NCBI GenBank assembly: GCA_965645245.1
Contig: OZ287083.1
Coordinates: forward strand, 992,001-1,056,000
Direction of reading: 5' to 3'
Length of the DNA stretch: 64,000 nt
Origin: Massalongia carnosa
Taxonomy: Eukaryota
Shown piece by piece: positions 11,045 through 57,193 of the stretch (position 1 is the stretch's first letter; each line of letters begins with the position of its first letter). A model generated the notes under the pieces. It was not told the origin of the DNA. It saw only the letters and a program-made list of their open reading frames with translations, and ran no database searches. The position numbers and the translations under genes are program-made.

Positions 11045-13064
11045 TTACCCCTTGCTTGGTTTCATGGGTAGAAAGTTGCCTACAATAAGGGAAGGACTTG
11101 TACAGTTTTAGAATTATGCAAACGCCCTCGGAATGGATAGACGTACATATTGTGGGTATCTCGTCGAATGGTAAACGAAAAGCAACAACGGATCTCGGGG
11201 TCTGTGGACTTCAGGTCTGGATTCTTCAAAGAACAACTGGTCAATAACGCTTTTTGTGAATTATCAAAGGCAATAGCTTCGAACTTTTCCCAGTAGCTCA
11301 CAAGATGATCTTCTACAATGATCTCGTGGATGGCCAACTTTCCCTGAAACAACATTAATTAGCCAGAGAGACGCTCCCTTGACTTTTCGCCGTTTGACTT
11401 ACGTCTCGAAGATTCTCGATCGGTACGTGAATGAGTTGCGCCATTTCCTTGTTGCCTCGAAAAATCTCTCCTGTTCTCCTCCAACAGCACGCAGGAACTG
11501 CCATGCTAGCAAATACTCGATCGTATTCCATCAAGCTTCTCTCAAACCACATTTCCACAAGCACCAACTCAATATCTGTCAAACTTTGCATTCGTTCCCG
11601 GAATTTGGGCCGGAACCTGTCAAGTTGCCTCAGAATTTTCTGGCGAGAGCTTGGCTGCATATTCTGCTCCATGTAGCGGTTCAATCGCAAGTAGCCCTTG
11701 ACGTAGTTGAAGGGCCGTAGCATTCCCGCATCATACTTGGCTTTTAGTAGTTTGTTCATGCGCTCCTCAGGGGCGTCACTGCCAGATGGGTCCGCTGCGG
11801 TCATGTAGTAGGTCTCCCGAGCTTTATCGATCGGCATGATAATTATAGGTTTCAGGGTATCGCTTCCAGGTGCGAGCAAAGCGGTTGGGGTGCCTTCTTT
11901 CTGGCTAAGCTGCTGAGCCCCAAAATACTGCCTACCGCTGCCGTTTGGAGGTGTGGGGACAGGATTGAGGTTGGGTGGACCAGAGTACAGACTGGGGGGT
12001 TCGTCGCTCGTGAAGGGTGCCGCGTCGTCAAGTAAGCTGGAACTGAGAAAGTCGTTAAGGAGGTTATATTCATTAGTGACCTCTGGTGCGTTGAACATAT
12101 ATGATGGATGAAGGCTGTGCATGTCCTGAAATTGGTTTTGTCCTCCAAGACTCCAGTCGCTGTAACCCAAGACTGGAACCAGGTTAGCAATTTCCAGAAT
12201 CTCCCGTCCCAAGTATCTGGCATGTTACCCACAAGGTTGACTTTTGGTCCCTTGCCCCTTACTTTGAGTTCCAGACGTTGATGGGGAAAGGGCGAGCTGC
12301 GACAAATCTCTTTGACCATTTATAGGTGACGTTGTTGTCGTCACAGTCACTCCTACCTTGTGTATCAATTTAGGCTCCTCTTGTCGTGCTTCGATTGAGG
12401 ATGGGCGGTCGGAGGGCATTTCCTCGGGCTTGAGCGAATCGTCGTTCTCCCTCGCCACCGTATCCTGCTCACCCTTGACAGCCCTCACAGGCTCCCGTGG
12501 TTCATCATGGCATAGGTGGCTAATATTGCGTTTGACGCATCTTGTACATGGGCGTTCCTGTGTATCCATGTGATCCAAAAATCAGTCAAGTGCCACCAAC
12601 CGGGTGCGCAGTCAGGCACCAACCCAATGAGAGGGCTTACCAAGTCGCATGTCATATGCTGTTATTGGCACAGCAACATCTTGGGAATCAGTCCTTCCGT
12701 CCAAGGCCCACTAATGTCAAAAAATGGGAAGACGCCGTGTAGCAAAGGGGGTGCAGAGACGAGAGCATTTGGGGGAAAGCAGCGAGAGGAGCGGTAGCTC
12801 ACCGAACGTCGGCAGTAAATACATGCTGATATATAGATGCGTATGTGTCAGCGCATGATTCGAATGTGAGGAAAAGTCCAAAACCGAAGCATGCCGATCT
12901 ACCCTACCATGATTGACCTTGCGCCGCTTCTTCGGGCTCGTGCTTCTTGTGCTCTCATCCTGCGGACTAACCGCCGGTTGGGCATGCGGGCTTCCATCGA
13001 TTTCCATTACATTACCTGTCCGTTTATCCGGTCCTCCATTCCTTTGGGTAGCTTGATGTTCCAC
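11045..13064 (-). CDS. acuM: Zn(II)2Cys6 transcription factor AcuM/Rds2 (gluconeogenesis regulator) with C-terminal PAS-like region
   Basis: Spliced KKRRKVNHACIYCRRSHMTCDLERPCTRCVKRNISHLCHDEPRE; FNYVKGYLRL; VPACCWRRTGEIFRGNKE; CCFSFTIRRD. Confidence 0.88.
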
Positions 13065-13512
13065 GATTGGAAAACAAGCAGAAAAGACTACTCAATTGAT
13101 TACCGTTTAGAAGCAAGCGACTCACGACATGGTTTGGGGGGATTTTTTTATTTTGGGGAGGGGACACCGGAAAGAAGAGGGGTTGTTGTGCACGCGACGC
13201 TGATATGTTCAGTCGTTAATACGGAGTACTTCATACAAGAATAGGTATCTAACTACTCTATACAGAGTACTCATTCATCATAACGACGGGCAACAGCATA
13301 CAGATTAATGAAGGCAAGGTGAACAAAATAGAAATTGCACGGTTAGTCATTGTTACTGTCTATCGTAGTTCTAGCTGTGTCAACTCCATCCATTTAGATA
13401 TATAGATACCACTCTGAGCGAAACGACAGAGTACGGAGTAGTAGTACGGAGTAATGTAGCGTACTTAGCTCGCCGAGGTACTCCGTATGACTGCACAATA
13501 CGGATACAGAGC

Positions 13513-14839
13513 CACGCGGGTGACAAAATAAATTGCAACGTGTAAGCGAATTTACCCCTGAATGCCCCATCAAAACACCCTCCTTTTTTTCAACTTTTTA
13601 TCTCATCATCAATGTCTCGACCCACAAAGCCTCATTATGATACTCCCACAAAGGCCAAAGTTCAAGGAGCTTATCAATTTCTCATCTCACATGCAATTCC
13701 ATTCGATCCACGGGCCATTTTTCAGGAATTTGGCGTGGCCGAGCGCGCGGGCTATAACATCATCAAAAGCGGAGCTTCTTCTCGCACACGTCACAATTCT
13801 TCTCTCGTTGAGACTCGGGGTCGAAAGCGAAAGATTAGTGATGATCAGCTGAAGGAGGCAGATCACATTCTGCAGGATCAAGATCTACAATTGGAAGGAA
13901 AACGCTACACATGGGATGCTTTAGCACAGGAGATTGGGGCCGACGTGATGGGACGTACAATGAAGAGAACTCTTACAGCTGCCTTGAATTATCACAAATG
14001 TCTAGCCTGTGTCAAAGGGTGGCTGGCAATGGCATCAGAAGAAAGAAGAGAAGAATTTGCTACAGTTATGTTAAATAAATATCCTCGGTCCGAAGACTGG
14101 CATCGCGTACGATTCAGCGATGAGATTCATTTTGGCTACGGGCCTGAAGGACAGTTACGAATCATTCGTAAGCCCGGAACAAGATATCGTTGGGATTGTA
14201 TTCAGCATCGTGATGCACCACCTGAGAAAGATCGTAAAAGAAAGCACTGCTGGGCAGCAGTTGGTTACAATTTCAAGTCGGATATCTACTTCTACGATGT
14301 GCCCAGCAATAGCAATGGAAAAATGACTCATCAGGTGTATATTGACGCTATTCTTGATCCCGTTGTCAAGCCCTGGTTGGAGCGTGGAGATGACTTCGTA
14401 CTTGAAGAAGATGGAGACTCTGGTCATGGCACGGGCAAGACACGAAACGCGGTCAAAAAGTGGAAGTTAGATCACGATTTAGAGCACTATTTCAATTGTG
14501 CTTCATCTCCTGATCTAGCCTCCATTGAAAATTGCTGGCAGCCCGCAAAGCAGCATGTTCGTAAATTTCCTCATTGGGACGATGCAAGTTTGGAGCAGCT
14601 GATTAGGGAGGGATGGGCTCGAGTCAGTCAGGAATTTATCAATGAAAGGGTGTTATCCATGCCCAAAAGATTGAAAGAGGTAAAAGATGCAAAGGGGGCG
14701 ATGACTGGTTATTGATCTCATGTAATTTAGATGAATTTTATCAGCTATGCAGATGATGGTTGATGATGAGATGAAAATTTGAATAAAAAAGGGGGGGTAA
14801 ATTCGCTTACACGTTGCAATTTATTTTGTCACCCGCGTG
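13513..14839 (+). mobile_element. Tc1-like DNA transposon, 1327 bp, perfect 46-bp TIRs, apparent 5-bp TSD AGAGC
   Basis: TIR CACGCGGGTGACAAAATAAATTGCAACGTGTAAGCGAATTTACCCC at 13513-13558 and inverted at 14794-14839; AGAGC at 13508-13512 and 14840-14844. Confidence 0.92.
13612..14715 (+). CDS. IS630/Tc1-type DDE transposase (DD38E), intact, 367 aa
   Basis: GRKRK linker, RFSDE, EEDGDSGH, SPDLASIENCW, C-terminal GAMTGY; 38 residues between second D and E. Confidence 0.92.
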   Translation: MSRPTKPHYDTPTKAKVQGAYQFLISHAIPFDPRAIFQEFGVAERAGYNIIKSGASSRTRHNSSLVETRGRKRKISDDQLKEADHILQDQDLQLEGKRYTWDALAQEIGADVMGRTMKRTLTAALNYHKCLACVKGWLAMASEERREEFATVMLNKYPRSEDWHRVRFSDEIHFGYGPEGQLRIIRKPGTRYRWDCIQHRDAPPEKDRKRKHCWAAVGYNFKSDIYFYDVPSNSNGKMTHQVYIDAILDPVVKPWLERGDDFVLEEDGDSGHGTGKTRNAVKKWKLDHDLEHYFNCASSPDLASIENCWQPAKQHVRKFPHWDDASLEQLIREGWARVSQEFINERVLSMPKRLKEVKDAKGAMTGY

Positions 14840-15085
14840 AGAGCACAGAGTACTCTGTACTCTGTACCGTTGTTAACCTTTTGGGGGCTGGGTACGCCGT
14901 AACGTTTACTAACTAGTTCTCTGTACTCCGTACTCGGTAGCATAGTCCGTAAACTTCCATACGAAGCCCGCTAGCTATCAGATAGATAACGAAGGCTTTC
15001 GCATGCCCTGCGAAAAAAAGTTGAAATAAGATTCCCCACTAAATCTTCAATACACGACTTACTTCTATGATTTGTTTTAAAGGTA

Positions 15086-16958
15086 CGGAGGCGAATCTCA
15101 AAAGTAATGATAATACGCTAAAGACTAGCGCCGTAATTTAGATTTTCCATACCGAGCCTGAAATTCTACCAACTATCTATATATGCCATTACCAACCATC
15201 TAATCAACGTCTTTTTGGTCTGAAACTGGCTGCAGTACGAATAACCTTCTGAATGCGTGGGGGAAGGTGATTTTTCGGAGATAAAACGGCTCTTTTTCTC
15301 AATAAGGGGGGTGTCAATGGCTTCTGTGTAGGGGGCTCAGGGGTAACTGCCCTGACATTCAACGGGCTGGGTGTATCATCCTTTGATTGTCTGGATGATG
15401 GTCTCGTTGACGCCACAGAAGAAGAAGAAGAAGAAGAAGAAGAAGAAGCTGGTTTTGCTGTATTACTGAGCAATTCTTCCCTCAGCTGTTGAAGTCGCAT
15501 TTTTCCTTCTTTGGTCCGTCCATCAACGTCCAAATGTCCTTCGCAATACTCATTTCCACCTTCCAATTCAATGACTTTTGCAATGTGACGTGGAATTCTT
15601 TCAATCCATGCCTGAATATTCTCCTGAGGTAGATCGTCCCAAGTGCGATGCCACATAGATTCAGCAATTAACCGAGAACTAGGAGGACCTTTGGCAGTTG
15701 TACGTCGCTTCATCCAGGGCCAGCAGGGTTCAATCATGTTGAGATCAGGAGAATTTCCGGGCCATAAAAGACGCTCGATGCCATGACGAGAGAAGATGGG
15801 AATCTGATGCTTGGAAGCATGAGACGGAGCCTTATCTTCCTGTACGATCATTTCAGACAATCCGGCTTCTCTTCTTTTTGCATTGCATTGCTGAGCAAAA
15901 GGAATCAGTTTTGGCAGAAGTATGACGTTTTGATACCGCCACCAATCAATGCCTCCTTTACCTTCTTTTCTGATCATCTTTCCATGTTCCTCATCCCATT
16001 TCCATTGCGGCTTTTTTCCTGGTAAATTGCGAGTTGAAAGACGTCTCATTCCATTGGTCAGCTCCCAATTTAATCTCTCACTGGCTTCCAATGCAGCATT
16101 CATCTCGTCAAGCTTGGTTTTGGCTTCCGCTTTTTCCGCTTTTGTCTCCGGTTTCCAGCAATGACATGGCCCCTTCCAATCGTAGGAAAAGCATCCCCAA
16201 AACATGAATTCATGAGCCCCATGCCACCTGGCACGTACGGTGGATTTGACTGGTCTTCTTCCTTCCTTGGTTGTACGCCAAATTTTGACAGCTCCGCGAC
16301 GGTGACCAAGCACTATTGCTGTTTCATCTGACCAAATAACCCGCTTCCAATCCTCCACGGTCCAGTCTTTATACAGGAGACAAAAAGCCAGTCTAGCCGC
16401 TTTCATTTCAGGAGTAAGCCCTGGTCTATACGACGGTTTGACTTTTTTATAGCCTCTTTGTTTTAGGATTCTCCACACGGTGCATCTGGACAGTCCAACT
16501 TCTCTTGCCAACTGGGCACTGGTTTTTTCACGGGCGTATCTGTCTTTTATGACTAGATCAATGACTTCATCTTCTTTCTCAGTAGTAGCCTTTCTCGGTC
16601 GACCAGATTTTTCTTCATGACGGGCGTATTTATCAAGCACCTGCAAAGAAATGGCGGGATCAAATCCTCGATCCCTGGCAATGCGACGAATACGATAAAT
16701 GTTGGGGACAGAATAACCTGTAGTAGCTGCAATAAATTCAATTGAGGCCGGGGTGCAATAAGACAACGTCAAGACCTGAGCCCGCAAAGAAATATCAGCT
16801 GATTTATTGACCATGATGATGATTTGATCAAATGTTGGTTCGTAATGATTTGGGATGAGAAAAGGGGAAAGAAAAGGGGAAAATTTGCTCGGTACGGAAA
16901 ATTTAAATTACGGCACTAGCTTTTAGCGTATTATCATTACTTTTGAGATTCGCCTCTG
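15086..16958 (-). mobile_element. Tc1-like DNA transposon, 1873 bp, 72-bp imperfect TIRs, TA TSD
   Basis: TIRs at 15086-15157 and 16887-16958 with about 6 mismatches; TA at 15084-15085 and 16959-16960. Confidence 0.93.
15204..16814 (-). CDS. Tc1-type DD34E transposase, 536 aa, with catalytic-domain insertion and low-complexity C-terminal tail
   Basis: SGRPRK, WSDET, QEDKAPSH, WPGNSPDLNMIEPCW; 34 residues between D and E. Confidence 0.92.
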   Translation of the reverse strand: MVNKSADISLRAQVLTLSYCTPASIEFIAATTGYSVPNIYRIRRIARDRGFDPAISLQVLDKYARHEEKSGRPRKATTEKEDEVIDLVIKDRYAREKTSAQLAREVGLSRCTVWRILKQRGYKKVKPSYRPGLTPEMKAARLAFCLLYKDWTVEDWKRVIWSDETAIVLGHRRGAVKIWRTTKEGRRPVKSTVRARWHGAHEFMFWGCFSYDWKGPCHCWKPETKAEKAEAKTKLDEMNAALEASERLNWELTNGMRRLSTRNLPGKKPQWKWDEEHGKMIRKEGKGGIDWWRYQNVILLPKLIPFAQQCNAKRREAGLSEMIVQEDKAPSHASKHQIPIFSRHGIERLLWPGNSPDLNMIEPCWPWMKRRTTAKGPPSSRLIAESMWHRTWDDLPQENIQAWIERIPRHIAKVIELEGGNEYCEGHLDVDGRTKEGKMRLQQLREELLSNTAKPASSSSSSSSSSVASTRPSSRQSKDDTPSPLNVRAVTPEPPTQKPLTPPLLRKRAVLSPKNHLPPRIQKVIRTAASFRPKRR

Positions 16959-17158
16959 TACAAAACGAACAATTACTGCTTAGATTCATGATTTAAATTA
17001 GTTGTCTGACTTTAATGATCGTACAGAAAGAATAATTTTGCAATTGTGTTTTGAGGAGTAAATTAATAAAATCCTGATTTTGGTGTGTCAACTTTTTTTC
17101 GCACCACGTGCCCTGCTCCAGGATTCACAAAGTCCATCCTTTGTATAATCCGACAATC

Positions 17159-18390: not shown

Positions 18391-18994
18391 GGGAACTAAT
18401 ACCGGGACACCCCTTTTCACTACCTTGACACCCTCATTCTCTAGGTTAACACCCCCAAGTAAGCTAACTCGATTGAGTATAAATTTCCCTCGGACGCAGA
18501 AACAACTGAAGAAAACATTCTCGATTTGATGAAATTCTAGACAGTCGTTTGATGCTTCCTCGATGATCGTTTTCAATGAATTGAGCTTCATTTCGTATTT
18601 ACATTCGAAAGGCCTAAATCAAATCCACTTCATCTACTTCAATCGATTGGATAGCTTCACCGGAGACCACCTCTTCATCTTGTGACGGCTCATCATTCCT
18701 CTCTCTGCCCCGTCCTCGCCCTCGCCCCCGTCCTCGATCTCGCCTCCGCCTCCGCCTCCGCCCCCGCCTCGGAGGCCCATTCAACATCTTCTCGACATGT
18801 TCGAACTCTGATAACTCCCGTTGAGTAGAGTTATCAGCCTTTCGTTGCTCTTTCCGATTGTAAATGCATCGCGATTGTAGGACGCCCTATGAAATGCATA
18901 CAGGTGAGTTCCAGCTCCGGAACGGATAAACTATCCAATCGGGTTAGCTTACTTGGGGGTGTTAACCTAGAGAATGATCCCGGTATTAGTTCCC
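18391..18994 (-). mobile_element. Non-autonomous Mutator-like (MULE) element, 604 bp, 8-bp TSD AATAAGAA
   Basis: TIR GGGAACTAATACCGGGA...TCATTCTCTAGGTTAACACCCCCAAGTAAGCTAAC at both ends; AATAAGAA at 18383-18390 and 18995-19002; internal minus-strand remnant GRP...STQRELSEFEHVE...RGRGRG resembles fungal MULE transposase C-termini. Confidence 0.8.
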
Positions 18995-19942: not shown

Positions 19943-21160
19943 CTAGTCGTACGGTTTCGAGTATATGTCAAAGAGCCCGAGACAGGGACGTCGACGGGCA
20001 CGGAGAACTGCGTCGCACACGCTTTCTAGATCTAAGATTGTCCCTTTCTCTTGAAATCCTTGTCCGACACCGTGTCTGACCGTGATCCGGTGCTGGGCGT
20101 CCCGCTTCGCGATCTCGTTCCTGGTTGCTTTGTTAAATATGAGTTGCATTCATCTGGTGGCACTACCCGATGCTCTCCTGTTGATAAAAGCAAATCTCGA
20201 GACGCCGGCTGCCAGAAAACCTTGAAGAAATGGAAAAACGGACCAAGCAAACCGGGTAAACAGGAACTCGGGAGCTACCCCGTCAATGAAGTGCAGCTTT
20301 GTGTTATGATACAGTTTGCCCAACTCCTGTGAATCCTTGAGAAGATGAGTAACTAAGTTTGGCGCTTCATTCGCTGCGGCTTTGGGGTCAAAGACAAATT
20401 GATATCGATCAAATGCAGTGCGCAGATCCTCCCGAATAAGCATGACATTGGCGGGATCATTGATAGCGCTGAAGCCGGCTTTGCTTGGATCATTTATGTA
20501 AAGCTGCATCACGTTGTCAAGGAACTAACGAGTTTCGCTGCGAGGGCAAAGATGTGCTTTCTCGCAGCTTTCTCGGTTAGCGCTAACTCGGCATGAGACA
20601 TCATGGAGAGCCACTCCTTTTGATGCGTCGTCTAGTCCAGAATCGCTTGGGCGAGTTGCAGAGGCAAAAGACCCGTGATCCCACAATGACGGAAGATTGT
20701 TATGTGGAAACCGCCATTCCCTAAAACAAGGAAAACAGGATACTTGAAGGAATCCAGGCAGGGTTCTTTGGTATCTAGACACATTACTTATCAACATTCG
20801 GAACAAAACAGAGGTGCCTTGCGTCTAACCTAATGTTGGAGACGGAACGTGAAAAAAAGTACTCTGAGTTTAATAATATGCCATGAGGGGGAATGACCAC
20901 ACGAGGCCCATTTAGATTCTCAGTAAAATAACCATCCCATCTGTTCCCTGCAACAATTCCACAAGCAATTCGGGCTGTTTCATGATGTATGCCACCTTTC
21001 GCATGATCCCGTGCCCCAAAAAACAGTAGAACATTGTGAGGAAATGAATATCCAGGATGTCGAATGAATACCCGATGCCGAAATTCAACGGAAATTGTAG
21101 AAGTGTCAATCACATGCGTGCGGAATTGTCTGCATCGGACGGATCGTAATTGTTTGATTC
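19943..21160 (-). pseudogene. Fungal HNH endonuclease-like (HNH_2-type) pseudogene
   Basis: IRHPGY, GGIHHETARIACGIVAGNRWDGYF, WRFPH, SCRVS...AHLCP, DPANVMLIREDL, LYHN, RFAWSVF motifs lie in different frames; T7 frameshift at 20852-20858; TAG at 20525-20527 where W is expected; no in-frame ATG found. Confidence 0.8.
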
Positions 21161-24933: not shown

Positions 24934-26558
24934 CTACGCCAAGACCCCATGCAGCAACCGGCCCAGCATTCCCCGAACCTTTGCGGAATCATGCTGCGCG
25001 AACGAGAAAAGTACCCCTATGCTCACTGAGAATGCCGCCTTCTCTCGCCATAGATACTATCCGTTCTTGTCAGTCCAAGGGACCGTTACGCGGTCAGGGA
25101 GGACGAACCTTTCTATCATAGCTCCTGGGAAGAAGAGTGGCCGCAGCTTTAGGTGCAACGAAAAACGCCACTTCTTGCCGTCGCTTTGCAGCTTCAATCA
25201 ATATGGACCAACCACATAGCACACACCCTGCACGGATGCAAAGACCTCCATCCCACATCATGGGCGTCACTCTTTTTGAACTCAATATTCGAGGGCCCAA
25301 TTGGGTCCGCGATAGGCAGACCCCATACCAGAAAAGTCCCACAAATGCGCCCAAAAACGCCGAAGACCGCAACGCTTCCTTAAGAGCCCGCCAGAACGCC
25401 TTCCAAGACGGGCTTCTCATTTTTATAAGGAGCTGGAGAGGTAAATATGTGGCCAACGCAAATCTAAATGTCCTCAGAAACCGCACTGCAGCGTGCCAGT
25501 GACATGACGGGCCGAGACCAGTATGTACCACTTCGCAAGGGATTGGGATTGTCTTAGACGGATCACCCCATTCCAACGGCCACTGGAATTCTCTACACAT
25601 ACTTTCTAGAATGAGAACACCTTCCGCCTTGCGCCCGTAGACAAACTCTCCTCTCCGGGCTTGGCGTAGCACTTCAATGAGACGGCGATCAACCTGAGCC
25701 GCTCCTTTGATCCATTTATCATAGGCACGTGGCAGCTTGTACGGATAATAAATCCACGCCCACATTATCATACCCGAACTAGCCGCAAAAACAGAAGCAT
25801 CCACATAGCGGGAGATGAATTGCTCGAGTTGTGTCCACCTCCCATGGGCAGCTCTAGAGGACTGATGGCGAGACCATATGTTGCCGATAATGGTTTCTAT
25901 TGACCGTACCACGGCAAATAGGGTAAGATCCATTGTTCGGCCCGCTATAGGCTTGGAGCAAATGCTAGCCTCGGCGTGAGGTGCTTCGGGAATATTTAGA
26001 TGCGATGATGGTTTCTTACTTCCGGAAGGCTTATTCAACATTTGAAGGCTGAACCAAGCAGCGACCAATGCGGCAAAAAATCGGGATGCTGTAATAGCGA
26101 TCCATGAACGATCTCGCGAGCTACCGCCTCGAAACTTCAATAAAGCCCAAGAGAATACAAACCGCAGCGGTAGCTGGAAAAAGGTATACATTCCTACCAG
26201 GGCTCCGCAAAATGTCGGAAATCTTCCTAGGGCTAGAGGTTCAACCAAAATATGCCGGAGCTAGAAAGGCACATAGCGTTAGCATTATCCTTGACAGATG
26301 GCATATTGGCGAGCAAACCAAGGTAGGCTATCCTAGTCAACCACGTGCGTTTCGTATACAGTTTGGCCTTGAATATGACCATGACAATCTGAGATCATGC
26401 AATCTCAGAGGTTTGTGATGGTGACTTACAGTTTTCATTACCCGCCGGTTTCGTCGATCAGTTTGTAGGCACGAGACCAAAACGCTCAAAACCTTTGGGC
26501 TAGTACTGTAGAGGTAGGCAAAGCCATACGCTTTCAAAAGACTGTGCCATGCACCCAT
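24934..26558 (-). CDS. TMEM135-like integral membrane protein, 3 exons
   Basis: AGRTMDLTLFAVVR, IMWAWIYYPYKLPRAYDKWI, IPIPCEVVH...SCHWHA, RSSAFLGAF, CGWSILIE...RRQE; final exon ends GVLA-TAG at 24934. Confidence 0.72.
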
Positions 26559-28394
26559 AATCAGCCTTGCATCAGACCATGAATGATCCAGGGCTGGAAA
26601 CCCCTTTCTTGAGTATGTCTATGATAGTAGGTAAAGGTTAGAAGAAAATAAGCTCACGGTTGTAGCAAGGGGGCAAGGTAGGTCGGAGTTCTGGACGCAT
26701 GGCGGAGCATTTTCCGTGTCATAATTATGGTTTCGCTAGGTCAGCCAGCTTTGAATATCCCCTCAATTGATTAGCCCGGCCATTGGTTCCACGGTGTTCT
26801 CCATCTCTTCATCGTGATGTTTTCGAGTGTGTATGCTTGATTCGAGAAAGAATTACCATTCTACGTGCAAGGGTTGGTTATTCCAACCTAAACTGCAATA
26901 CTGGCCCACTTCAGTTTTTACCCGGAAGGTCGGAAAGGAGGCTATTTCTAAGTAACTCGGTACTTGGTTAAGTCAAAAGGATAAACTGGAACTTATATTG
27001 AGCTGAAAGAAAGAAAATTAAACTTGGTATTGAGTACACGGTACCTAACCACCTAACCTCGGTACTCTATGAAGTGAAAATAAAGATCTAAGCGAGCTCC
27101 CTGAGATTGATGATCCTTGCAAAATCAATGCACTAGGTAACTTTCGTGCATGAAATCTTCAACGGCGTGTTGTTTATTTTGACTGCACAAATCTTGGAGT
27201 CAAGATTGTGTACTCCGTAGGTTCTCTGCTACTCGCACACTCTATGTGTATATGATATTCCTACTCCGTACACCCCTTCATCTAAGGCAAACCTCTCTTT
27301 CACCAACCATATTTTCCTTCGATTTGCCTGCGATAAAGGCAGCCAAGGGCGATGGAGTTAAGGACGATAACTGGAAGCGCAGAAGGTGAGGGAAGATAAT
27401 GTTGTTATCATTTCGCAATTGATATCGGATTAGCGAAAGAAGTCAGAGACTGTATTTCCAAGGGTTTAGGTTTGTAGCCTGACAAACTGGAGGTTTTTAT
27501 CTTTTCCTATCGGAGACTTTAGAGTTTTCCAAATGAATGTGTACAGGGCGTGTACTCCTTACCCACATAAAAAGTGAATGCTTGGATGGATGGCTTGTTC
27601 TACCGACTTAAGAGAGACTAGCTAAAATCGAAGGGGTAACGATCACGTGGGAGGATGGCATGTTTTCTCATTTATTATGTAAGCCTTGTGTACATTGGGC
27701 CACCACTACTTTCGCTGTCTTTTTACTTGCTGAAATTTGCTTTCACTCAGCTAGATTTAGATGCCGAAGTTTTTAACTATGGCTTATCGGCTGTTGCACT
27801 CTTGGATGGCCGACCTCGCTTCTGCAGGCTCAAACAGAACTTTAGGACCAGCTCCTTCTACGCCCAAACCAGACCTGGCCATCTAGTTGTTTATCATGAG
27901 TTATAACCTGTAGTAGACGTTCACGAGTCTGTCTGTGCGCTTGTATCGGATTTTGGAAGTAATTTCCACAAATTATCCTCGTTTCTGTTACCCTGTCTTT
28001 ACGGAAATGCCTCGTAGAACTGGTGTATGGCTGAGCCTACGTTGCTTGTTCGTAATTGCTTTCGCGGGACGACCAATCTCCAGATCGTACAACCTTTCAC
28101 CTCGTTGTCCCCTGTCTCAAGTACGATATTCGTATAGTGTATATAAATACTAGATTGAGGGTTGACGAAGACTGGACTTCTCCCCCGTCTTAGCTCTTGT
28201 ATGTAAAGTAATGGCCGGCTGGATTGGCCATGGACCACCTCCTCAGAGAAATATCCCTCTTTAGTTGTCTGACTACCAATGGACTCTATGGCTGCTCTCC
28301 GAGAATGACTCCCACCGGCGAAGGTAATATCCACTATGCTAGGATACGTAGATTTATTATTATTCGCTTTCCTCGGCACCATCTCTGAATTTCA

Positions 28395-30625
28395 TCGGCT
28401 CAAGCCCGATAAAGCACCAGGTCCTGACGGCATATCTAATAGAGTACTCAAGGCATGCGCGGAAAAACTTGTTGAATTATCAACACCTCTGTTTCAGGCG
28501 TGCGTTATGTACACTTTCGTACCATCCCCGAGCCTTCAAAATGGCAAACACAATAACATTAAGAAAATAGACAAATGAAATTACACCACGTCGAAGGCTT
28601 ACCGACCAATTGCATTACACAACACGCTCAGCAAAGTAATGGAATCTATCATAGGATCAAAAATAACCCATTTAGCGGAAACACATCGGCTCCTACCCGA
28701 CAGACAGATGGGAGCGAGAAAGGGCAGATCTACAGAATCAGCTCTGGAGTTACTAACCGAACAGGTTCACACGATTTGGGGACAAGGAAAAGATAAAGTA
28801 GCCACGCTTTTAAGCATGGACTTCGCCGGCGCGTTTGATACAGTTTCACACCAAAGACTAAAGCACAATCTACGTAAAAGAAAAATCCCGAAATGGATCA
28901 CTGATTGGTTAAACAGCTTTTTAGATGATCGTAGCACAACTCTAGCTATAAATCGAAAAGCGACCGGACGATTCGCGGTGAGAACTGGCATACCACAGGG
29001 CTCCCCTCTCTCATCCATTCTTTATCTATTCTATAATGCAGACCTATTGGAAATATGTGAGCGACCAGGCACAAACACAAGTGCCATAGGATTTGTAGAC
29101 GATGCCAACATTTTGGCATACGGAAAAAGCACCGAAGAAAATTGCAAGACTCTGGAGTCAATACACAGACAATGCGAAAAGTGGGCTTCCCGACACGGAT
29201 CCCTATTCGCTCCGACGAAGTACGAACTCATTCACTTGTCTAGAAATCCCAAAAGATTCAATATGGCTGCATCCATCAACATTGCAAGCATCGAAATTGA
29301 ACCCAGAACGGACATTAGAGTCTTAGGCTTACAGATTGACACCAAGTTGAAATGGGGGCTGCACGTTCGCAAAACTCAAAAGAAAATGATCAAACAATCA
29401 ATGGCATTGACAAAAATCTCCACATCGACCTGGGGTGCCACCTTCACCAAAGCAAGGCAAGTTTACAGCGCCGTAGTGCGTCCGGTCATGACATACGGGT
29501 CAATCGTATGGCACATGCCCAAAGAAGTCAAAAAGTCAAAAACGTCAACGAGTAAGCTCTCCGTTATGCAAAACAACTGCCTTCGCACCATAGCCGGTGC
29601 CTTTAAAGCCACTCCCATTCCAGTTCTTGAAGCAGAGACATACATAGCACCCATGGATGTACACCTCGACACGTTACAGGCGCAGGCCAGACATCGACTC
29701 CGAGCCGAAGGTCAATCGAAGGTCATTTCTTCCGCATGCAGCAAAATAGTTAACAAACTCCGAGGCAAGGCAGGTCGCAAACGCCTTCAAAAATCCACTC
29801 CGGGAGAGCTGAAGCACACCTGGGCCAAAAACCTACTGATCGACGCAAAAATCGTTCAACCACCCAAAGCACACCCACCATGGTCCGACCCCCCCCCCAG
29901 CGCATCTCCGCGAAGTCTCCGTAGCAGCGTTGGCTCGTCAAAAACAAATGCAGACAATTAAAGCACGACAGCTGAAAGTCTGGAACGACTCGTGGAGCGC
30001 ATATCAAAATCGCGTCACCGAACCCTCCATAGCGCAATCAGTCCCAATGAGCAAAAAACGACTGAAAATACACACGCTGCTAAAAAAGGCAGAAAGCGCC
30101 TTGACAACACAGATCCGCACCGGTAAGATCGGTCTAGCTGACTTCCTCTACCAGCGACGGGTCCCCGCCGTCACCTCATCGGCCTGCCCATGTGGCTGGC
30201 ACAGACAAACTCCAGAACACGTATTCATGTTCTGTAGACTTATTGACAATAGAGAACAGATGTTTCGCGCCGCTGGCACGAACAACTATCAACAGCTAAC
30301 TGAAACATCAAAAACTCTAAAGATATTAACTGCTTGGCTAATGAAAACAGGTCTACTGACCCAATTCTCACTGGCGTCTACACTATTGTACAATCAACAG
30401 TAGTTTCACTTCTCTTTTCCTTCCCATCTCACAAGGCGTCACAGTTCTCAAAATATTTTCGCTCTGCGTCTCCTGTGCGACGTCGACCCGGTGTCACATC
30501 GGACAGGTATCAAGGGATATGGTTTTTACACCTGAAAAAGGTTTTCCATGTAACATAACTTAGATAGCTTTGCCCGCATAGGCCGGCCTACGGCCGGTGA
30601 CATATCGGAGTATGAATACATCATC
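28395..30625 (+). mobile_element. 5'-truncated LINE (Tad1-like non-LTR retrotransposon): RT plus C-terminal zinc knuckle, degenerate
   Basis: KAPGPDGI, MDFAGAFDTV, GIPQGSPLS, GFVDD, CPCG...QTPEHVFMFC; frameshifts near 28510-28590 and ~29890; (CAT)n tail; possible TSD ATTTCA at 28389 and 30626. Confidence 0.9.
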
Positions 30626-32067
30626 ATTTCACGACCCCGAATAAAGCGGCTCTAGCTCGCTCGAGGCTGATCGGGTTCGATAATTACCCGGGGATCGAAG
30701 TATAGCTCATCCCCTTCGCTTGCGTAGAATGCTGGAAGCCTTGATTCTAGTGTAATTCCTAAGAGTTTCTCTATGAACCTAAACTGTATATCGTACTCTA
30801 GCCCTCCAAGTCGGGACTCGGGTCGATAAACTTTGCTAGTGATCTTAAAGTCCAGTCCCTTTCGCTTCAGGTCCCTAGGAAATTTTGGCATGGCGAGAGC
30901 AGAACTTATCATCATAGGGTGTCAGTATAATAATAACTTTCTTTGCCGTCATAGTAAGGGAATTTGAAACCGTTTAAAACACCGAGACTATGTATCCAAT
31001 TGAAACCACCTACTTACCGCTCACTCTGCAGTAATAGCTCTAGCTAAATCTATAGCAAATCTTCTTGTTTGTCTAGATATCAAGAATCCAACGTAAATTA
31101 ATGACGGATCTAAGAAACTGGTCCGGAAAAGCAATTTCAAACTTCGATATGAAATTAAGCTTCATATTAACTCAAAAAGAAAAACACGAAGAAAAGAGAT
31201 TTTAGAGACAAATAGAAATACTGCAATCTTTATAAAGTCTTGCAGGGCACCATTATTTCTTAACTTGTTTCACAGATGATGCTAGCATTAAATTCTAATA
31301 AAGACTTTTCTCTGAGTTCTGATGTAGATACGTGGCTATTACAATGATTAGAGAAGCCTGCTAGGTCAGAAACCTCTACGTGGTGCAGGCTATCAAACCT
31401 CCTCGGAAGTGGCCAATATCTGATAATCGCCAACGCGGAAGCCCACCTTGGTGGCCGTTTGAATGATCAACGTCTCTACTGATCATTCACCACTTCGAAG
31501 GCATACAAAGCCCATTCATTCGGAATGGCCACACTTCCACACCTTCATTTATACGACACCACGATCTGCCCTCGATCACGGTCAGTCTTTCCTTCATTGA
31601 GTCAAAACGGTTAAAGAGAGAGAATGTTCGTCGAACGTGTGGAGATACACTGTCTAGTTCATCGAGTCTACAGGATTCCTAGCGCATGAAGATCTGAGTG
31701 TATGCACCGCGTGGTAGAAGAACGATTTCGTTGCGTTCAATATGGGAATAAGGGAGTGGTTTTACCCTGGGGGCCAGGTTTCCAATTCCTGACTGTTGTT
31801 ATGTACATAAATAGCAGTCACAGCGTCATATCCTTAGGATGCATACGCTTAATGGAATTAATAATATTAAAATGATAAGAAACTAAGTGTTGAACTATTC
31901 TCACGAAATAAGGTGAAGCGGGCGATGAATGTGCCACACCCACTTGTGGCACGATGACTCGGGTAAATATTTATCCAAACGCGCGGCTGTATTGATGTTG
32001 CCGTCATAGCTTTATAGAACAATTAACTTAAGGATAGAGTAAAGTGCTACATTTTATACACCCATCT

Positions 32068-32979
32068 ATGAATAGATCTATATTCTCAGGAAAATGGGTA
32101 CACATTACTTTGCCCAGAGTTGCAGGACGGCAAAGCTCTCAAACGCTTATGTCATCAAACACTAGGCGGGTCACAACTGCATCCAAATCACGACAAAATG
32201 CGGTGCCTAATATGTACCACTTACGAGCACCATTTTCCCATAGAAATACCTCGACACTGTGAGTGGACCGGGCCACAAAGTATTTTTGTTGCTAAATGCA
32301 CTAGATACTACTCACTTAGCATTATACTCGGAACTGTTGCTCTTTCTTATGGCTCCGTGCCGATGTATAAAATGGTTAGCCGATCCGATAATTTTCGCGT
32401 TGAAAAATCTGCTCATGTTGCAACCAGATATGCCAGCAAACCGGCTGGGGCGGCCAGCCCATCAAAGCTTCCATTCACTCATCTGCAGAAGATCCTTCAG
32501 CACGGTTACAACCCGTTACCTCTTCTCGTCGCCTTCGGATCACTTTCAATGGATCTGTATCAGACGTTATGCCATGGAAATTTGTTCCCCAACAGCGAGA
32601 AGTTCGAGTCCTTCCTGGAGAAACTGCCCTTGCCTTTTACACAGCAACAAATAAGAGTGACGAGGACATCATTGGGGTTGCAACCTACAGCGTCACGCCT
32701 GCGCAGGTCGCCCCATATTTCAGCAAAATCCAATGTTTCTGTTTTGAGGAGCAAAGACTCAACGCCGGAGAAACCGTGGATATGCCTGTTTTCTTTTTCA
32801 TCGATCCAGATTTTGTTAATGATCCAACCATGAACAAAATTGATACCATTACGCTATCTTATACTTTCTTCAGTTAGTCTTCTTCGTCCACAAATACGGC
32901 CGTATAAACTAAACCGAAATCAGAAGCTAGATATGACAAAAACGGTAATTTAACGCCGATGCCGATAGGGATGGGATAG
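32068..32979 (+). CDS. COX11: Cytochrome c oxidase copper chaperone Cox11, 4 exons
   Basis: SYGSVPMYKM/ICQQTGWGG, WKFVPQQREV, YFSKIQCFCFEEQRL, MPVFFFIDP. Confidence 0.95.
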
Positions 32980-33458
32980 TGGAATCTCAATCCGTATTAT
33001 TAGCACTTGAATTCAAATCTCATCAAGAGAGTTGAATAGTATCAGTGGTATACCTAAAGGACTTGCATCCCCCAGAATATCTGGTCGCAAAATTCAGATT
33101 CAATTAAGCATACAGCTACTGGGTTTATGAAGCGCCGTGGGTAGACTCTAAGGCTGGGTTACATAACTCCGTCTCGCCCGAGAGGTGTCGCATTAGGCTT
33201 CCGCAGAGCTGCCCCTAAAGAACTTTGTACAGCGGCTTAAAGCATACTTGGGCTTCTATAGATAGATAGATAGATATATTCTTACGCCGATATGTCAGCG
33301 GCCGAAGGCCGGCCCATGCGGGATGGACTACTATGCTACAGGAAAAACCTTTAAGAGGAATAAAAACCCATTGCCAACGCTGCGCGTACGAGGTCCCAAC
33401 GACCTCCAGCTGTGCTGCTCGTGTGCTTTTTCGATGAGTCCCTTGAATGAAAAGAAAA

Positions 33459-36400
33459 TTATTGCTTGTATAGCAAGCTTGCCGATAAAGAAAATTGCGC
33501 CAAAACGCCAGCTTCGATAATCCATCTCGTTACCTGTTTCAATGTTTTGGATGTTTCGAGTATCGTACGATATTCGTTGGTATTTATACGCCGATACAGC
33601 TCTTGTCTTCCCGCCATTAATGGGCAGTGCATGATTACGTGTTTGGCCGTTTGCTGGGGCCAACCACAGCTGCAGGCCGCCGTCGTCACGTTGGGAACTC
33701 GTCGTTTAAATAGAAAACTTGCCAGACCTATTTTTTCCGTGCGAATTTGGGTAGCTAACGCGCTTTCCGCTTTTGCCAGATTGTCGTGTATTTTGATTCT
33801 TCCTTTGGTTAAGGAAGCGCGCTGTGCTTCGGTGGGAAAGGGTACGCGATCTTGATATGCTTTCCAGGTTGTCTGCCATTTCGTTTTGTAATGCGCTTTT
33901 GTGGCTTTCGTGTGAGCGTTGCGACTCATCCTTACTGCATTGGCTGTGAGCATGTGTTGCTCCGTAGGCGTGATCTAGGGTGGGTGCGGCGTTGGGGCTG
34001 CGGTGGGTATGGCGCTGATCACTGTGGTTTTGGCCCATTCGTGCTTGAGCATTCCTGGGGTCGGTTTCGGCGATCTTTTCTTGCCCGCTTTTCCGCGCAA
34101 CTTGCGTTCTATCTCCTTGCAGAAAGACGAGATGAGTCTCGTTTGCCCGGCGGTTCGTTGGCGATATCTCGCTTTGACTTGTAATTCTTCCAAATGCGAT
34201 TCTATAGACGTCACGTGCGTTTCGGTTTCCAATACTGGAATCGGGGTGGCCCGAAATGCACCCGTTATTGTTCGCAAGCACTTGTTTTGCATGACCGCCA
34301 GCTTGCTCGTCGCGGCTTTGCTTTTCCCTATTTCTTTCGGTGTGTGCCATACGGCGGATGCGTAGGTCATTGCCGGACGAACGACTGCAATATAAACCTG
34401 TCTGGCCTTCGAGAACGAGGCTCCCCATGTGGACGCGGAGATCCTGGTCAGTGCACCCGATTGTTTCGCCATTTTTTCTTGAGTTTTCCGTACATGGGCT
34501 CCCCATCTCAGTTTGGTGTCGATTTGTAGACCCAGCACCCTGATATCCGGTTTGGGTTCGATCGTTTTTGTGCTTATCCTGATGGTGGCCGTCATGTCGA
34601 ATTTTTTCGGATTTCTGGACAGATGAATAAGCTCGTATTTGCTCGGGGCAAACACGGAGCCGTGGCGTAAAGACCATCTCTCGCATTCCTTGTGAATTCT
34701 TTCTAGCGTTCTGCAGTTTTCCTCGGTGCTTTTGCCGTATGCCAGAACGTTGACGTCGTCTACGAAGCCCAGTGAGCTTGTATTCGTGCCTGGTCTTTGA
34801 CATATTTCCAGCAGGTCTGCGTTGTAGAATAAATATAGAATCGGGGAAATGGGAGAGCCCTGAGGGATCCCTGTTCTCACATCGAATACGTCGGTGGTGC
34901 GTCGTTGGATCGTAAGCGTTGTCCTTCTTTCGCTCAAGAAGCTCTCGGTCCAATCGGTAATCCATTTGGGAATCTTTCTCTTTCGCAGATTGTGTATCAA
35001 TCTTTGGTGAGATACGGTATCGAACGCTCCTGCTACGTCCATGCTGAGCAGTGTTGCCACCTTGTCGTTGCCCTGGCCCCAGACCGTGTGCACCTGTTCC
35101 GTGAGAAGTTCCAGTGCCGATTCGGTGGATCTTCCTCTACGAGCCCCCATCTGCATGTCGGGTAGCAGGTTATTGCTCTCGGCCATGTGGGTGATTCTTC
35201 TTGCGATCACTGCTTCTAGTACCTTGCCCATTGTGTTCAATAACGCTATCGGTCGATAGGCTTTCGGGGTCGTGTAATCGTCTTTGCCCGGTTTTTTCAG
35301 CGTGATTGTGTTTGCGATTTTGAAGGCTCGAGGATGGTACGCGAGCGTTACGCAGGCCTGATACAGTGGGGTGAGTAGGTCCGTTAGCTTCTCGGCGCAT
35401 GCTTTTAGGATTCTGTTGGAAATGCCGTCCGGTCCGGACGCCTTGTCCGCACTGAGTCGTTGGATGTTCGTAAGAACCTCTTCTCTCGTTATTCTCTCTG
35501 GGCATTCGATTTCGGCGGGATAGAACGCTCCGGGTATGTCGCGTAGATCCGCCGGGGGCGGTGCTGGAAAGAAAGTGCTCTTAAGCATTTCTGATTTCTC
35601 TTCGAATGTGAACGCTTTTTGATCGTTGAATTCGAGCGATGGCATTTTCGGTACTTCGCGGCCTGCATTGCTCTTGTTTTTGGCCCATTTGGCGAGTTTC
35701 CAGATTCCCTGGGGCGATTCGGTGGCGCGGCTTATCTCTTTACGAAACGAGAGCGTTTTCGCTTTTTGAATTATCTTTTGTTTTTTGTCGTTCGCCTTCA
35801 TGTACGCTATCCAATCTTCCCTGAGATGTGTGGCGCTCCATATTCTGCGCAGTCTGCGGGATTGCTTTGTGGCGTCGTTGCATTCGGGATTCCAAAAGGG
35901 TTTTGCGTGTGCGCTTGGTTTCGCCCACGGGACGGAAGCGGCGATCACCCGCTGAAGAAACTTCTGTATGGCGTGAGTGTATTCGTCAATCCCCTCGCGC
36001 GAGCGTGGGTGACTCGTAGGGGGGGCGGTCTGCTCAGCCTCTCTTAGCTTTTCCATGTTCAGAAGCTTCTAGGCTCGGCGTTTGATGGGCGTAGGTATCT
36101 CGTAGCCTAGTAGGATGCGGGTAGATATCGGGATGTGATCTGACGATTGATTCAAGTCGGGTCTCGTCTTGCAATGCTCTACTCTTTCTGCTAAGTATTC
36201 CGACATGAATACTAGATCTATGGTGCTGAACGACCCTCGAGCTTCCCACGTCACTGAGCCTTTGGGCAGTGTTAACGATAGGTCGTGATTCTCTACTAGA
36301 TCTAGCAGATGGTCGGCTGCGGTGTGCTGAGTGGGCCTCGTAAGGCCGTTCCAGAGCGGATGGTGTAGATTGAAATCGCCGATCACAACGTGTTCCGCCT

Positions 36401-44900: not shown

Positions 44901-45793
44901 ATGATTCATGGCTCTCAACAACAGTGGAGCCTCATGCCTACGCATGCTGTATTTAGTTTTGTGCGGCCGGCAAGCTTTGTATCGGGGAGTCTAGCTGGAC
45001 ATCAAACACGATTTACTCAGTGGTTGGGCAATTTCAGCAAGACAGGTAGGAATCGTTATGAAGCTCTAAATCCTTAGTTTTGTTAACAAACCAACCAGGC
45101 AAGCTCTTGCGTTTGGTTAAGGAAATTCAAGGACATATGAGACTTCGTGCCTCAGGCGATCGTCATGAGATCCGACAACAATATCTCCCAGTTCTCTGGT
45201 ACAGGTTGATTCAAGATCTCGAGCGACGAGGAAAGGACTGCGTGGAAGATGTCATTGATTTAATGGACAGTTACTTCCTCACTAAAGACGACTGGGATGC
45301 CATCCTAGAACTTGGTGTCGGACCCATGGCGATGGAATCCGTCAAGCTGGAGGCACAAACCAAAGCCGCCTTTACCCGCCTTTACAATCAACAATCACAT
45401 CCCCTTCCCTTCATGAAGGCAAGCAGTGTTGTTGCTCCCAGGAAATCGAGCAAGGAGAAACCGGACTTGGAAGAGGCTATCGACGAGTCTGAAAGTGATG
45501 GCGATGCGATTGTGGAGGCAGACGCCGATGACGACGAAGACGATGCCCCGCTGGATCTCAAAAAGGACAAATACGTTAAGGCACCGAAGAAGAAAGCTAT
45601 ACCCAAAAATCTTAGCGCGAGGAAAGGCGGTTCGAAAGGGAAGAGAAAGCGGAAGGATGAGGAGATTGGCGATGAAGAGGAAGACAATGGTGTTGAGGAT
45701 GAGGAAGATAGCGAAGAAGATATCAAGCCGAAGAAAGGCAGAAGGCCTGCGAAAGGGAAAGCGATTGCTTCGAAGACGAAAGGTAAAAAATAG
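41956..45793 (+). CDS. RFC1: Replication factor C large subunit Rfc1, multi-exon
   Basis: MPLDIRNFF N-terminus; BRCT (CLAGLTFVFTG), LWTVKYAP, GPPGIGKTT, MDEVDGMS, RFC1 C-terminal domain, acidic/basic tail. Confidence 0.96.
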
Positions 45794-49578: not shown

Positions 49579-50351
49579 GTGCGGAGGATTCTGGGTGTGA
49601 GCTGTCTTTCTTTAGGGCATTGTGGGACAGCGGGATTTATGAAGTGATGTGAATTAGCGTTCGGATGTCTTTACGATCATAGACTTACGACGAGGAGGGA
49701 GGGAATACTCCAATTTATGTTGATAATGTTACTATAAATTGGCCGGGAACCACAATATCCCCTTTTAAATCAACTTCTCGTTCGCACATAGCCTACGGGT
49801 TTTCGGACCCCCATCATCCTTCCCTCCCGCCTCCTCGACACAACGCCAGAGTGGGTATAATAGGTAAAGAGCAAAAGGCTCTCGTAAGCTGGGTAGGGAA
49901 AAGCTGCACAGAAATTGGAAAACGACTTGACTTGGATGATCAGCAGCTTCATACCTTGTCCTTTTCCGCATGACGAGTTTGTTGGTTGGCGAAGATTGAC
50001 TTATATAGTCAAACCCTAGCTAATTATCCACTGTCAGATCAATTTAGTGTTCTAGTTCATGTACTTTACAAGAGACCTATCAAAGTGTAATCTATGATCT
50101 GTAATATTACAGGCTAGGATAATCAACATAAAGTACTCTCTAGGTAAGTTCTTTGTAGTCGTACAGAGTATGCGGTAACACAAAGAGACTACATCAATCC
50201 CCCCAATCATAAGTCAGACAATGGACTCCGTAACGCGATCTCAACCCTGGCATTCTGGCCTGTCAGGCGTCCGTTTTCTTCTACAAACACAAACACGAAG
50301 CTAGATACCAACGCGGCTCCCCCAGGCCGCCGCGGTGTAGATCACGCAAAC

Positions 50352-56686: not shown

Positions 56687-57193
56687 GGCAGAGATTGAGA
56701 AGGGAAAGGGAAAGCAGCAACTATGAAAGGAGCCGGTACTCCAAGTGCTTAACAGAGATTAGCTTTTTGATAGAAGAAAATGGCAAGAGGAAGGTATTTA
56801 GTAGAGCTCTCTTCGAGGGAGATATTGGAGCTGATGATAATTCTAATGCTGTAAAGGCTACAGCTCTTCGTACGCGTTTCTCGATACAGAGTACAGAGTA
56901 CATGTATCTCTCTACTCGTAAGTTTGCAGTAGCGTATAGATCATTAATATTTTACATTACATGACGGTATTGCACTGCCTCCAGCAAGTCAGGGGTGGAA
57001 CGTCGATTGTTCCGAAGCCGAAATCTAAATTCCAAGGACAACAACGTTGCCTCATCTACTTCACGCCGAACGATTGCCTTCCGTAACATGTCTCTCAGAC
57101 TCTTAGAGGCACTTCAATCCCAACAACTATTTGGTTTAGATCCTGGCTAGTCGTCTGATCAACATAACATTGGCTATTGTCCCGATTATAGCG

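Follow-up and report, generated by a model that had tools for sequence, protein, structure and literature searches.

The locus considered here raises the question of where a short and much repeated word upstream of a fungal regulator gene came from. The window, meaning the whole stretch analysed, comprises 64,000 nucleotides of contig OZ287083.1 (positions 992,001 to 1,056,000; assembly GCA_965645245.1, Massalongia carnosa), and the word is TACRGAGTA, in which R is A or G. It is clustered in the 5' region of an ERT1/AcuK-family gene, together with two Tc1-like transposons, referred to as element 1 (13513–14839) and element 2 (15086–16958). A preliminary description of the window had read the clustered copies as arrays of excision footprints. 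TACRGAGTA was found to be a dispersed intergenic word, and the single most likely explanation, which is put forward tentatively, is that it is the canonical excision scar of a CGGAG-tipped DD34E Tc1 family that includes element 2.

Frequency and anatomy of the word

The number of copies was compared with 100 dinucleotide-preserving shuffles of the 64-kb window. TACRGAGTA occurred 13 times as an exact match against a mean of 0.45 in the shuffles (standard deviation 0.66, largest 2), and none of the 100 shuffles reached 13. With at most one mismatch allowed, 49 matches were obtained against 16.0 (largest 26; 0 of 100 shuffles). Among all 9-mers of the window, TACGGAGTA ranked second in over-representation (7 against 0.22, 32-fold) and TACAGAGTA fifth (6 against 0.27, 22-fold). 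The over-representation in the window is statistically robust. None of the 13 copies lay inside an open reading frame (ORF) of at least 130 amino acids, although such ORFs make up 56.3% of the window.

Eight of the copies were located within 13220–14932, the main array, and the remaining five, at 27211, 27262, 50162, 56885 and 56892, were 12–42 kb away from it. Thus, the word is dispersed rather than local. Accordingly, the earlier idea that the word was the product of a local hotspot had to be given up, all the more as it is identical to the published SomA/Tardis word of Aspergillus fumigatus (PMC7667024, PMC12153272; the papers cited here were available in part, and statements about them refer to those parts). 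The eight array sites listed previously (TACGGAGTA at 13220, 13432 and 13445; TACAGAGTA at 13261; TACTCCGTA at 13479 and 14924; TACTCTGTA at 14851 and 14858) were all recovered on the strands given, as were three quoted strings in which units share a TA (13427–13440, 14846–14866 and 14919–14932). The sites in the window are as follows.

13220–13228, plus strand: TACGGAGTA module in the 5' region of the ERT1/AcuK-family gene, at 213 bp from its ATG (13007, minus strand)
13261–13269, plus strand: TACAGAGTA module
13427–13440, plus strand: two-unit chain sharing a TA, CAGAG-TA-CGGAG-TA, with GA and not TA as its outer 5' dinucleotide
13432, plus strand: TACGGAGTA within the chain 13427–13440
13445–13453, plus strand: TACGGAGTA module, 13 bp beyond the preceding one
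13479–13487, minus strand: TACTCCGTA as read on the plus strand, first module of the block in opposite orientation
13499–13512, plus strand: TACGGA-TA-CAGAG-C, a four-nucleotide variant plus one unit, abutting element 1; AGAGC at 13508–13512 is the left copy of a direct repeat
14840–14866, no strand assigned: AGAGC, the right-hand copy of that direct repeat, followed by the three-unit chain CA-CAGAG-TA-CTCTG-TA-CTCTG-TA
14851 and 14858: TACTCTGTA copies in the three-unit chain
14917–14939, minus strand: chain TT-CTCTG-TA-CTCCG-TA-CTCGG-TA, two units and a one-mismatch unit, with TACTCCGTA at 14924
14893–14901 and 14943–14951: degenerate copies before and after the chain 14917–14939
27211–27270, minus strand: two TACTCCGTA modules (27211 and 27262), intergenic, on the upstream side of a minus-strand TMEM135-like ORF (25094–26248)
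50162–50170, plus strand: TACAGAGTA between sugar-transporter ORFs and a Dicer-like gene (both plus strand), with a one-mismatch copy at 50224
56885–56900, plus strand: chain TA-CAGAG-TA-CAGAG-TA in the divergent promoter of a proteasome subunit ORF (minus) and a RING-variant ORF (plus)

All 13 copies are strict modules of TA, five nucleotides and TA. The window contains 202 TA-N5-TA sites, and the CRGAG core occupied 13 of them, whereas the next commonest core occupied 3. Conversely, TA stood on both sides of 13 of the 272 CRGAG cores counted on both strands, against 3.0 expected with independent flanks. The dependence on core length was determined by counting TA plus the first k nucleotides of the element 2 tip plus TA in the window and in 100 first-order Markov simulations. 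The observed and simulated counts were 10 and 7.2 for k = 3, 5 and 2.4 for k = 4, 13 and 0.41 for k = 5, and 1 and 0.11 for k = 6. The enrichment is specific to the five-nucleotide core, and only k = 5 stands out. Outside the module, C followed in 9 of the 13 sites, G preceded in 8, and both were present in 4. Similarity among the copies ended at 9–12 nucleotides; thus, they do not derive from a longer repeat. A larger repeat or a miniature inverted-repeat transposable element (MITE) behind the word was rejected on the same ground, and a self-BLAST of the window showed only the inverted repeats of the two elements there.

The modules are also chained. Five unit-TA-unit junctions sharing the TA were present (13427, 14846, 14853, 14919 and 56887) against approximately 0.06 expected; as strand counts, this is 10 against 0.12, the largest value in 100 simulations being 4. 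There was one chain of three units, along with two TA-unit-TA-unit-TA strings, and neither arrangement was produced in 100 simulations. The inverted junction CAGAG-TA-CTCTG was present once and belongs to a 24-bp near-palindrome at 14840–14863. In the main array, the orientation of the eight perfect copies reads ++++----, which gives two runs (permutation P = 0.028; P = 0.11 when the one-mismatch copies are included). Chance clustering has nothing in its favor except that the word is short. It is refuted, as none of the shuffles gave 13 copies, the three-unit chains were absent from the simulations, and over-representation of the word has been reported independently for another fungus (PMC12153272).

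Local multiplication would account for part of this arrangement. A few seed copies could have been multiplied by replication slippage or unequal exchange and then altered by CpG transitions, the arrays being tiny satellites. Tandem Repeats Finder reported period-7 arrays at 13429–13453 and 14850–14867, the latter with a 100% match over 2.6 copies, and a 19-nucleotide two-unit segment recurs 66 bp away with 89% identity. Moreover, five of six neighboring unit pairs, as listed by eye, have the same orientation, two pairs being identical and two differing only by a CpG transition, and the blocked orientation of the array points the same way. However, slippage cannot yield the inverted junction or the near-palindrome around it, and no single unit length divides the spacings of 13, 41, 51 and 171 bp. 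It also gives no account of the isolated copies at 13220, 13261, 27211, 27262 and 50162, of the genome-wide abundance of the word in A. fumigatus, or of its identity with transposon tips. Multiplication of this kind is therefore considered improbable as the origin of the word.

Two further words were also over-represented in the window. For TAC[AG]TA the enrichment was moderate, with 59 strand counts where 32 were expected, and GTACATA/TATGTAC belonged to the enriched 7-mers (14 against 3.9). Other words containing TA or GTAC may thus share the process that makes TACRGAGTA.

The tips of element 2 and an origin by excision

The identity of the core with a transposon tip directs attention to element 2, which was annotated as follows.

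15084–16960, minus strand: element 2 with its TA duplications (15084–15085 and 16959–16960), the body being 15086–16958

Its ends read TA|CGGAG at 15084–15090 and CTCTG|TA at 16954–16960. Hence, the two core variants of the word, CGGAG and CAGAG, are the two tips of the element, exactly as the preliminary description had observed. The inverted repeats are 72 bp long and identical at 66 of 72 positions (75 bp at 92% in BLAST when G-TA is included). All six mismatches are transitions, and three of them, including the one in the tip, are at CpG; thus, CGGAG is probably the ancestral tip and CAGAG the derived one. The target site of element 2 reads G-TA-C, so that a scar left there would form an 11-mer with G and C flanks.

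Element 2 carries an intact transposase ORF of 536 amino acids (15204–16814, minus strand) with the Pfam domains HTH_Tnp_Tc3_2 (2.1e-11) and DDE_3 (5.2e-11), and alignment of the protein to 5cr4, the catalytic domain of Sleeping Beauty, gave 8.3e-18. The triad was assigned to D163, D327 and E362, with a D-E gap of 34, i.e., DD34E. Judged by these features, element 2 has the makeup of a canonical intact Tc1/mariner DD34E element. The protein cluster at 99% identity holds 46 member sequences, which suggests a young multi-copy family; after it come relatives with 78% and 73% identity, and then proteins at approximately 45–56% that include, among the matches listed, Fusarium, Penicillium, Pyrenophora and Cladobotryum. 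The fungal Tc1-like DD34E transposons of Fusarium, Penicillium and Pyrenophora (about 50% identity) share with element 2 the TA duplication, long inverted repeats, both Pfam domains and the DD34E triad, whereas element 2 stands apart by its D-D spacing, which at 163 residues is long, and by a C-terminal extension measuring approximately 110 amino acids. A GAA/TTC trinucleotide run at 15420–15450 encodes a poly-serine stretch in this extension. Relatives of approximately 430 amino acids lack the extension and cover about 79% of the query.

Tc1/mariner transposases cut the transferred strand at the tip of the element and the other strand inside it, and the donor flanks keep TA and a short 3' overhang. 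Sleeping Beauty and mariner nick three nucleotides inside the element, and end joining leaves footprints identical to the overhangs (PMC7827188). Such footprints are flanked by the TA duplication (PMC2874221), and that of Minos is 6 bp (PMC10992017). The Minos example TA-CGAG-TA, offered earlier as a precedent, agrees with the 6-bp length, which the earlier text reads as four nucleotides plus TA. Stagger lengths vary among relatives in this way (PMC7827188, PMC10992017), and this variation was counted in favor of an origin of the word by excision.

In the proposed mechanism, the family of element 2 would cut five nucleotides inside the element, leaving TA and CRGAG overhangs on the donor flanks. 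From Tc1/mariner chemistry, these overhangs would pair only at their outer C:G positions, like the three-nucleotide overhang of Sleeping Beauty, and, depending on which strand repair followed, TA-CRGAG-TA or TA-CTCYG-TA would result. A scar flanked by G and C would offer new G-TA-C targets, and reinsertion followed by re-excision at the TA of a scar could build chains with shared TA in either orientation. Of the two tips, CGGAG would be the ancestral one, from which a CpG transition would have produced CAGAG. SomA or zinc-cluster factors may later have come to bind the scars, and a Starship integrase may have come to use them; such later adoption would reconcile excision scars with the Aspergillus literature.

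The variant counts were compared with this scheme. TACAGAGTA occurred 6 times, whereas TATGGAGTA, the product of CpG transition on the other strand, occurred once. The 6:1 asymmetry weakens a simple CpG decay of CGGAG sites as the source of the CAGAG sites, and the excess fits a filter through functional transposon tips. The chance that a top-ranked word equals TA, tip and TA of some resident family was put at approximately 2%, a rough look-elsewhere estimate that was reasoned out and not computed and that covers families, enriched words and stagger lengths.

Compared with the footprints of Sleeping Beauty, mariner and Minos, the word likewise has a few terminal nucleotides enclosed by two TAs; its core is identical to the tips of a DD34E element present in the window, and C and G are its first and last bases. 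It differs in retaining five nucleotides instead of 2–4, and in being a standing, dispersed and chained word as opposed to sequenced revertants. An origin of the word by excision is thus partly supported: the anatomy fits, and excision itself is presumed. Accordingly, the part of the preliminary description that stands comprises the strict TA-five-nucleotide-TA module, the identity with the tips and chaining far above chance, while the excision and its five-nucleotide stagger are what we infer from them. In the literature searched, no paper was found that links the word to transposon excision or gives the tip sequences of Aspergillus Tc1 elements, and the available parts of PMC2836289 and PMC10512250 contain nothing on tips or footprints of this kind.

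A wider proposal can be formulated, though it is rather doubtful. According to it, the word, which ranks among the most over-represented short words in the genomes of Eurotiomycetes and, judging by the window, in this Lecanoromycete-like genome as well, would not be primarily regulatory code; it would be the accumulated record of scars from a DD34E Tc1 lineage cutting five nucleotides inside its ends, whose scars recreate the preferred target G-TA-C and seed chains in promoters, host factors and the recombinase of a giant transposon having adopted the word later. If the word is an excision scar, the known range of Tc1/mariner cleavage stagger would be extended to five nucleotides, and cut-and-paste transposons would write a readable and countable history of their jumps into promoters. 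A family of transcription-factor sites and a Starship attachment site would gain a concrete origin, and motif discovery from chromatin immunoprecipitation (ChIP) in these fungi may recover transposon scars. If it is not, a published Aspergillus promoter word would still be extended to a second fungal class, and an unusual overlapping-array architecture would still be documented upstream of a gluconeogenesis-type regulator gene.

Protein binding and the published occurrences of the word

The word has been described in A. fumigatus in two settings. GTACTCCGTAC was the top motif under the peaks of SomA in ChIP followed by sequencing (119/476), and recombinant SomA shifted it in gel assays, the binding being abolished by mutation of the motif (PMC7667024). 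In addition, TACGGAGTAG is the target site of Tardis Starships, and CTACGGAGTA lies above the 99.99th percentile of Af293 10-mers (PMC12153272). The authors of the latter paper propose a transcription-factor site, cite a zinc-cluster matrix of JASPAR and leave the characterization of the motif to future research; in their supplement, the direct repeats are given as ctacggagta and the empty sites as tactccgta. According to search results, papers on A. flavus, A. oryzae and Coccidioides contain the 11-mer too (PMC2212646, PMC4035902, PMC8486383). Thus, the over-representation of the word is already published for A. fumigatus. Its origin as a scar, the chain architecture and its occurrence in a Lecanoromycete-like genome appear new within the literature searched.

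The assignment of the window to a second fungal class was based on an RFC1-like ORF (42687–45077). Its best non-identical matches were 73–74% identical among the matches listed, and 25 of the 120 matches listed bear names, apparently those of lichen-forming Lecanoromycetes (65–72% identity; the lineage was confirmed for two). As the nearest named relatives are Lecanoromycetes and not Aspergillus, TACGGAGTA is over-represented outside Eurotiomycetes as well.

The SomA motif contains the 9-mer of the window exactly, it lies in promoters, and G and C flanks are frequent in the window too. The full 11-mer GTACTCCGTAC, with R allowed, was present at 4 of the 13 sites, and the 9-mer core at all 13. 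The differences are that the window belongs to another fungal class and that the word is known here from sequence alone. The CAGAG variant, which makes up 6 of the 13 copies, is not mentioned for the SomA motif in the available part of PMC7667024, where the motif is treated as a regulatory site and its origin is not discussed. Searching four of its supplements for acuM, acuK and the motif gave no matches, a negative of little weight because gene identifiers may differ. In Tardis Starships, the attachment site is the same 9-mer, and its strong over-representation is reported as unexplained (PMC12153272). The tyrosine recombinase of these elements uses the word and accounts for neither its abundance nor its chaining. 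A captain clade from lichen-forming fungi falls within the Tardis family (PMC13486527); no Starship boundary or captain gene turned up at the sites in the window, no dedicated search having been made.

These data argue for a close rival explanation, which is a distinct possibility. The word would be a host cis-regulatory element, bound by a zinc-cluster factor or by a complex of the SomA/Flo8 type, selected in promoters and older than the split between Lecanoromycetes and Eurotiomycetes, and its likeness to the tips would be coincidence or partial imitation. The main array would then be a homotypic site cluster upstream of the ERT1/AcuK-family gene, where transposons landed because promoters are open chromatin. 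The chromatin immunoprecipitation and gel-shift results, the extreme rank of the 10-mer in Af293 with the interpretation of its authors, and the presence of the same word in a Lecanoromycete-like window all favor this explanation. So do the absence of the word from long ORFs, the positions of all clusters, which are compatible with 5' regions, the blocked orientation, and the start of the array 213 bp from an ATG. The preliminary description had named a host protein site as its alternative, and this has direct published support in another fungal class, with binding known only from A. fumigatus (PMC7667024).

However, a host site leaves unexplained why TA stands on both sides of a core that begins with C and ends with G and why that frame only is enriched, and also why the core equals both tips of the resident Tc1 element. 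Units that share a TA, whether direct or inverted, cannot all be occupied together, which is unusual for a site cluster. Imitation would be incomplete, since the transposon junction, where the tip is followed by GC and not TA, matches the word at 7 of 9 positions. The motif from the immunoprecipitation peaks is weak evidence by itself, because MEME on promoter-rich peaks would pick up whatever word is very abundant in promoters; the gel shift carries more weight. The two explanations are not exclusive, as scars could have been adopted as binding or attachment sites.

Several observations weigh against an origin of the word by excision. The binding of SomA in A. fumigatus (PMC7667024) is one of them. 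Because the word is abundant both in A. fumigatus, a member of the Eurotiomycetes, and in this Lecanoromycete-like window, scars would require the same tip and the same stagger in both classes over a long time, and Aspergillus was not among the named relatives of the element 2 transposase in the 120 matches listed. A five-nucleotide stagger is not described in the available parts of the literature found. In the window itself, the array is oriented in blocks, where independent scars predict random orientation; three chains lack the outer TA (GA, CA and TT stand in its place); no fill-in products of two tips were found; and core lengths other than the canonical one are barely enriched. All five motif clusters are positioned compatibly with 5' regions, as a promoter element equally predicts. 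Finally, the tips of element 1, which had been cited as a second user of the hotspot, differ from the CRGAG tips of element 2.

Element 1 and the surroundings of the array

Element 1 and the gene downstream of the array were annotated as follows.

13513–14839, plus strand: element 1, a Tc1-like element of 1327 bp
11355–13007, minus strand: ERT1/AcuK-family gene encoding Zn2Cys6 and PAS domains, with the motif array in its 5' region

Element 1 has perfect inverted repeats of 46 bp in self-BLAST (13513–13558 and 14794–14839), which start with CACGC, and an intact DDE_3 ORF of 367 amino acids (13612–14715; Pfam DDE_3 2.5e-09, alignment to 5cr4 at 1.4e-10). The triad reads D170, D267 and E306, the first D being assigned by eye, and its D-E gap is 38. 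A TA duplication is absent: GC flanks the left repeat and AG the right one, and a 5-bp direct repeat, AGAGC (13508–13512 and 14840–14844), immediately flanks the element. A TA duplication is expected for the Tc1/mariner superfamily, and a 5-bp duplication is not. AGAGC would be a genuine 5-bp duplication, the result of capture at a break within a motif chain, or a chance match in repetitive flanks. The earlier notion of a hotspot that had received both elements is weakened, since element 1 has neither CRGAG tips nor a TA duplication. When element 1 and one copy of AGAGC are removed, the units continue uninterrupted from 13499–13512 into 14845–14866. Thus, element 1 interrupts a motif chain that already existed when it was inserted. 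Scars of its own tip (TA-CACGC-TA) were not found in the window (0 against 0.19 expected).

Two other delimitations of element 1 were rejected. A version with a TA duplication and CAGAG tips, tried by hand, would need an indel of 12–13 nucleotides at the tip of repeats that are otherwise 100% identical. With CAGAG tips, moreover, the outer 5-mers run in the same direction and are not inverted, and the reading as a 5-bp direct repeat was preferred despite its conflict with Tc1 biology. Outer sub-terminal repeats of a larger element were not supported, as no extended inverted similarity was present outside 13513–14839.

The position of element 1 inside a chain, with motif units on both flanks, could indicate that the word came first and that Tc1-type elements were drawn to it, through a preference for the GTAC step or by tethering to a bound protein. 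Element 2 occupies a G-TA-C site, the last degenerate unit being approximately 130 bp away, and both insertions are in one intergenic region. However, the motif is absent from the immediate flanks of element 2, no Tc1 element lies near any of the other four motif clusters, and only two insertions were sampled. Attraction of this kind also leaves unexplained that the core is the transposon's own tip, and it is regarded as quite unlikely, even more so than slippage.

The main array begins 213 bp upstream of the ATG (13007) of the gene at 11355–13007, whose exons, read by eye, spell a Zn2Cys6 cluster. Its C-terminal ORF groups with ERT1/AcuK-family PAS proteins with high confidence. Thus, the former label "acuM" is right at the family level only, acuM and acuK not being distinguishable here. 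The motif was absent from the three recognizable convergent 3'-3' gaps of the window.

Further repeats and ORFs were observed elsewhere in the window. Two inverted copies bearing a reverse transcriptase (28420–29624 and 34234–35435) are 71.6% identical over approximately 1.2 kb; these are old retroelement insertions, and they make 28–36 kb a transposon-rich block beside the motif pair at 27211 and 27262. A segment of 2.75 kb in this block (30573–33322) is bounded by GC-rich inverted repeats of 54 bp (87% identical) that start with CCCGCATAGGCCGGCC, and it may be a DNA transposon; the 237-amino-acid ORF inside it (32120–32833) gave no Pfam match. To the right of element 2, a MITE-like segment of 544 bp (18434–18977) is bounded by 42-bp inverted repeats (97.6% identical) that start with TCATTCTCTAGG, with no clear target duplication at its bounds. 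In the gene-poor stretch that follows element 2 on this side, a minus-strand ORF of 120 amino acids (20150–20512) matched the HNH_2 endonuclease domain (9.4e-06).

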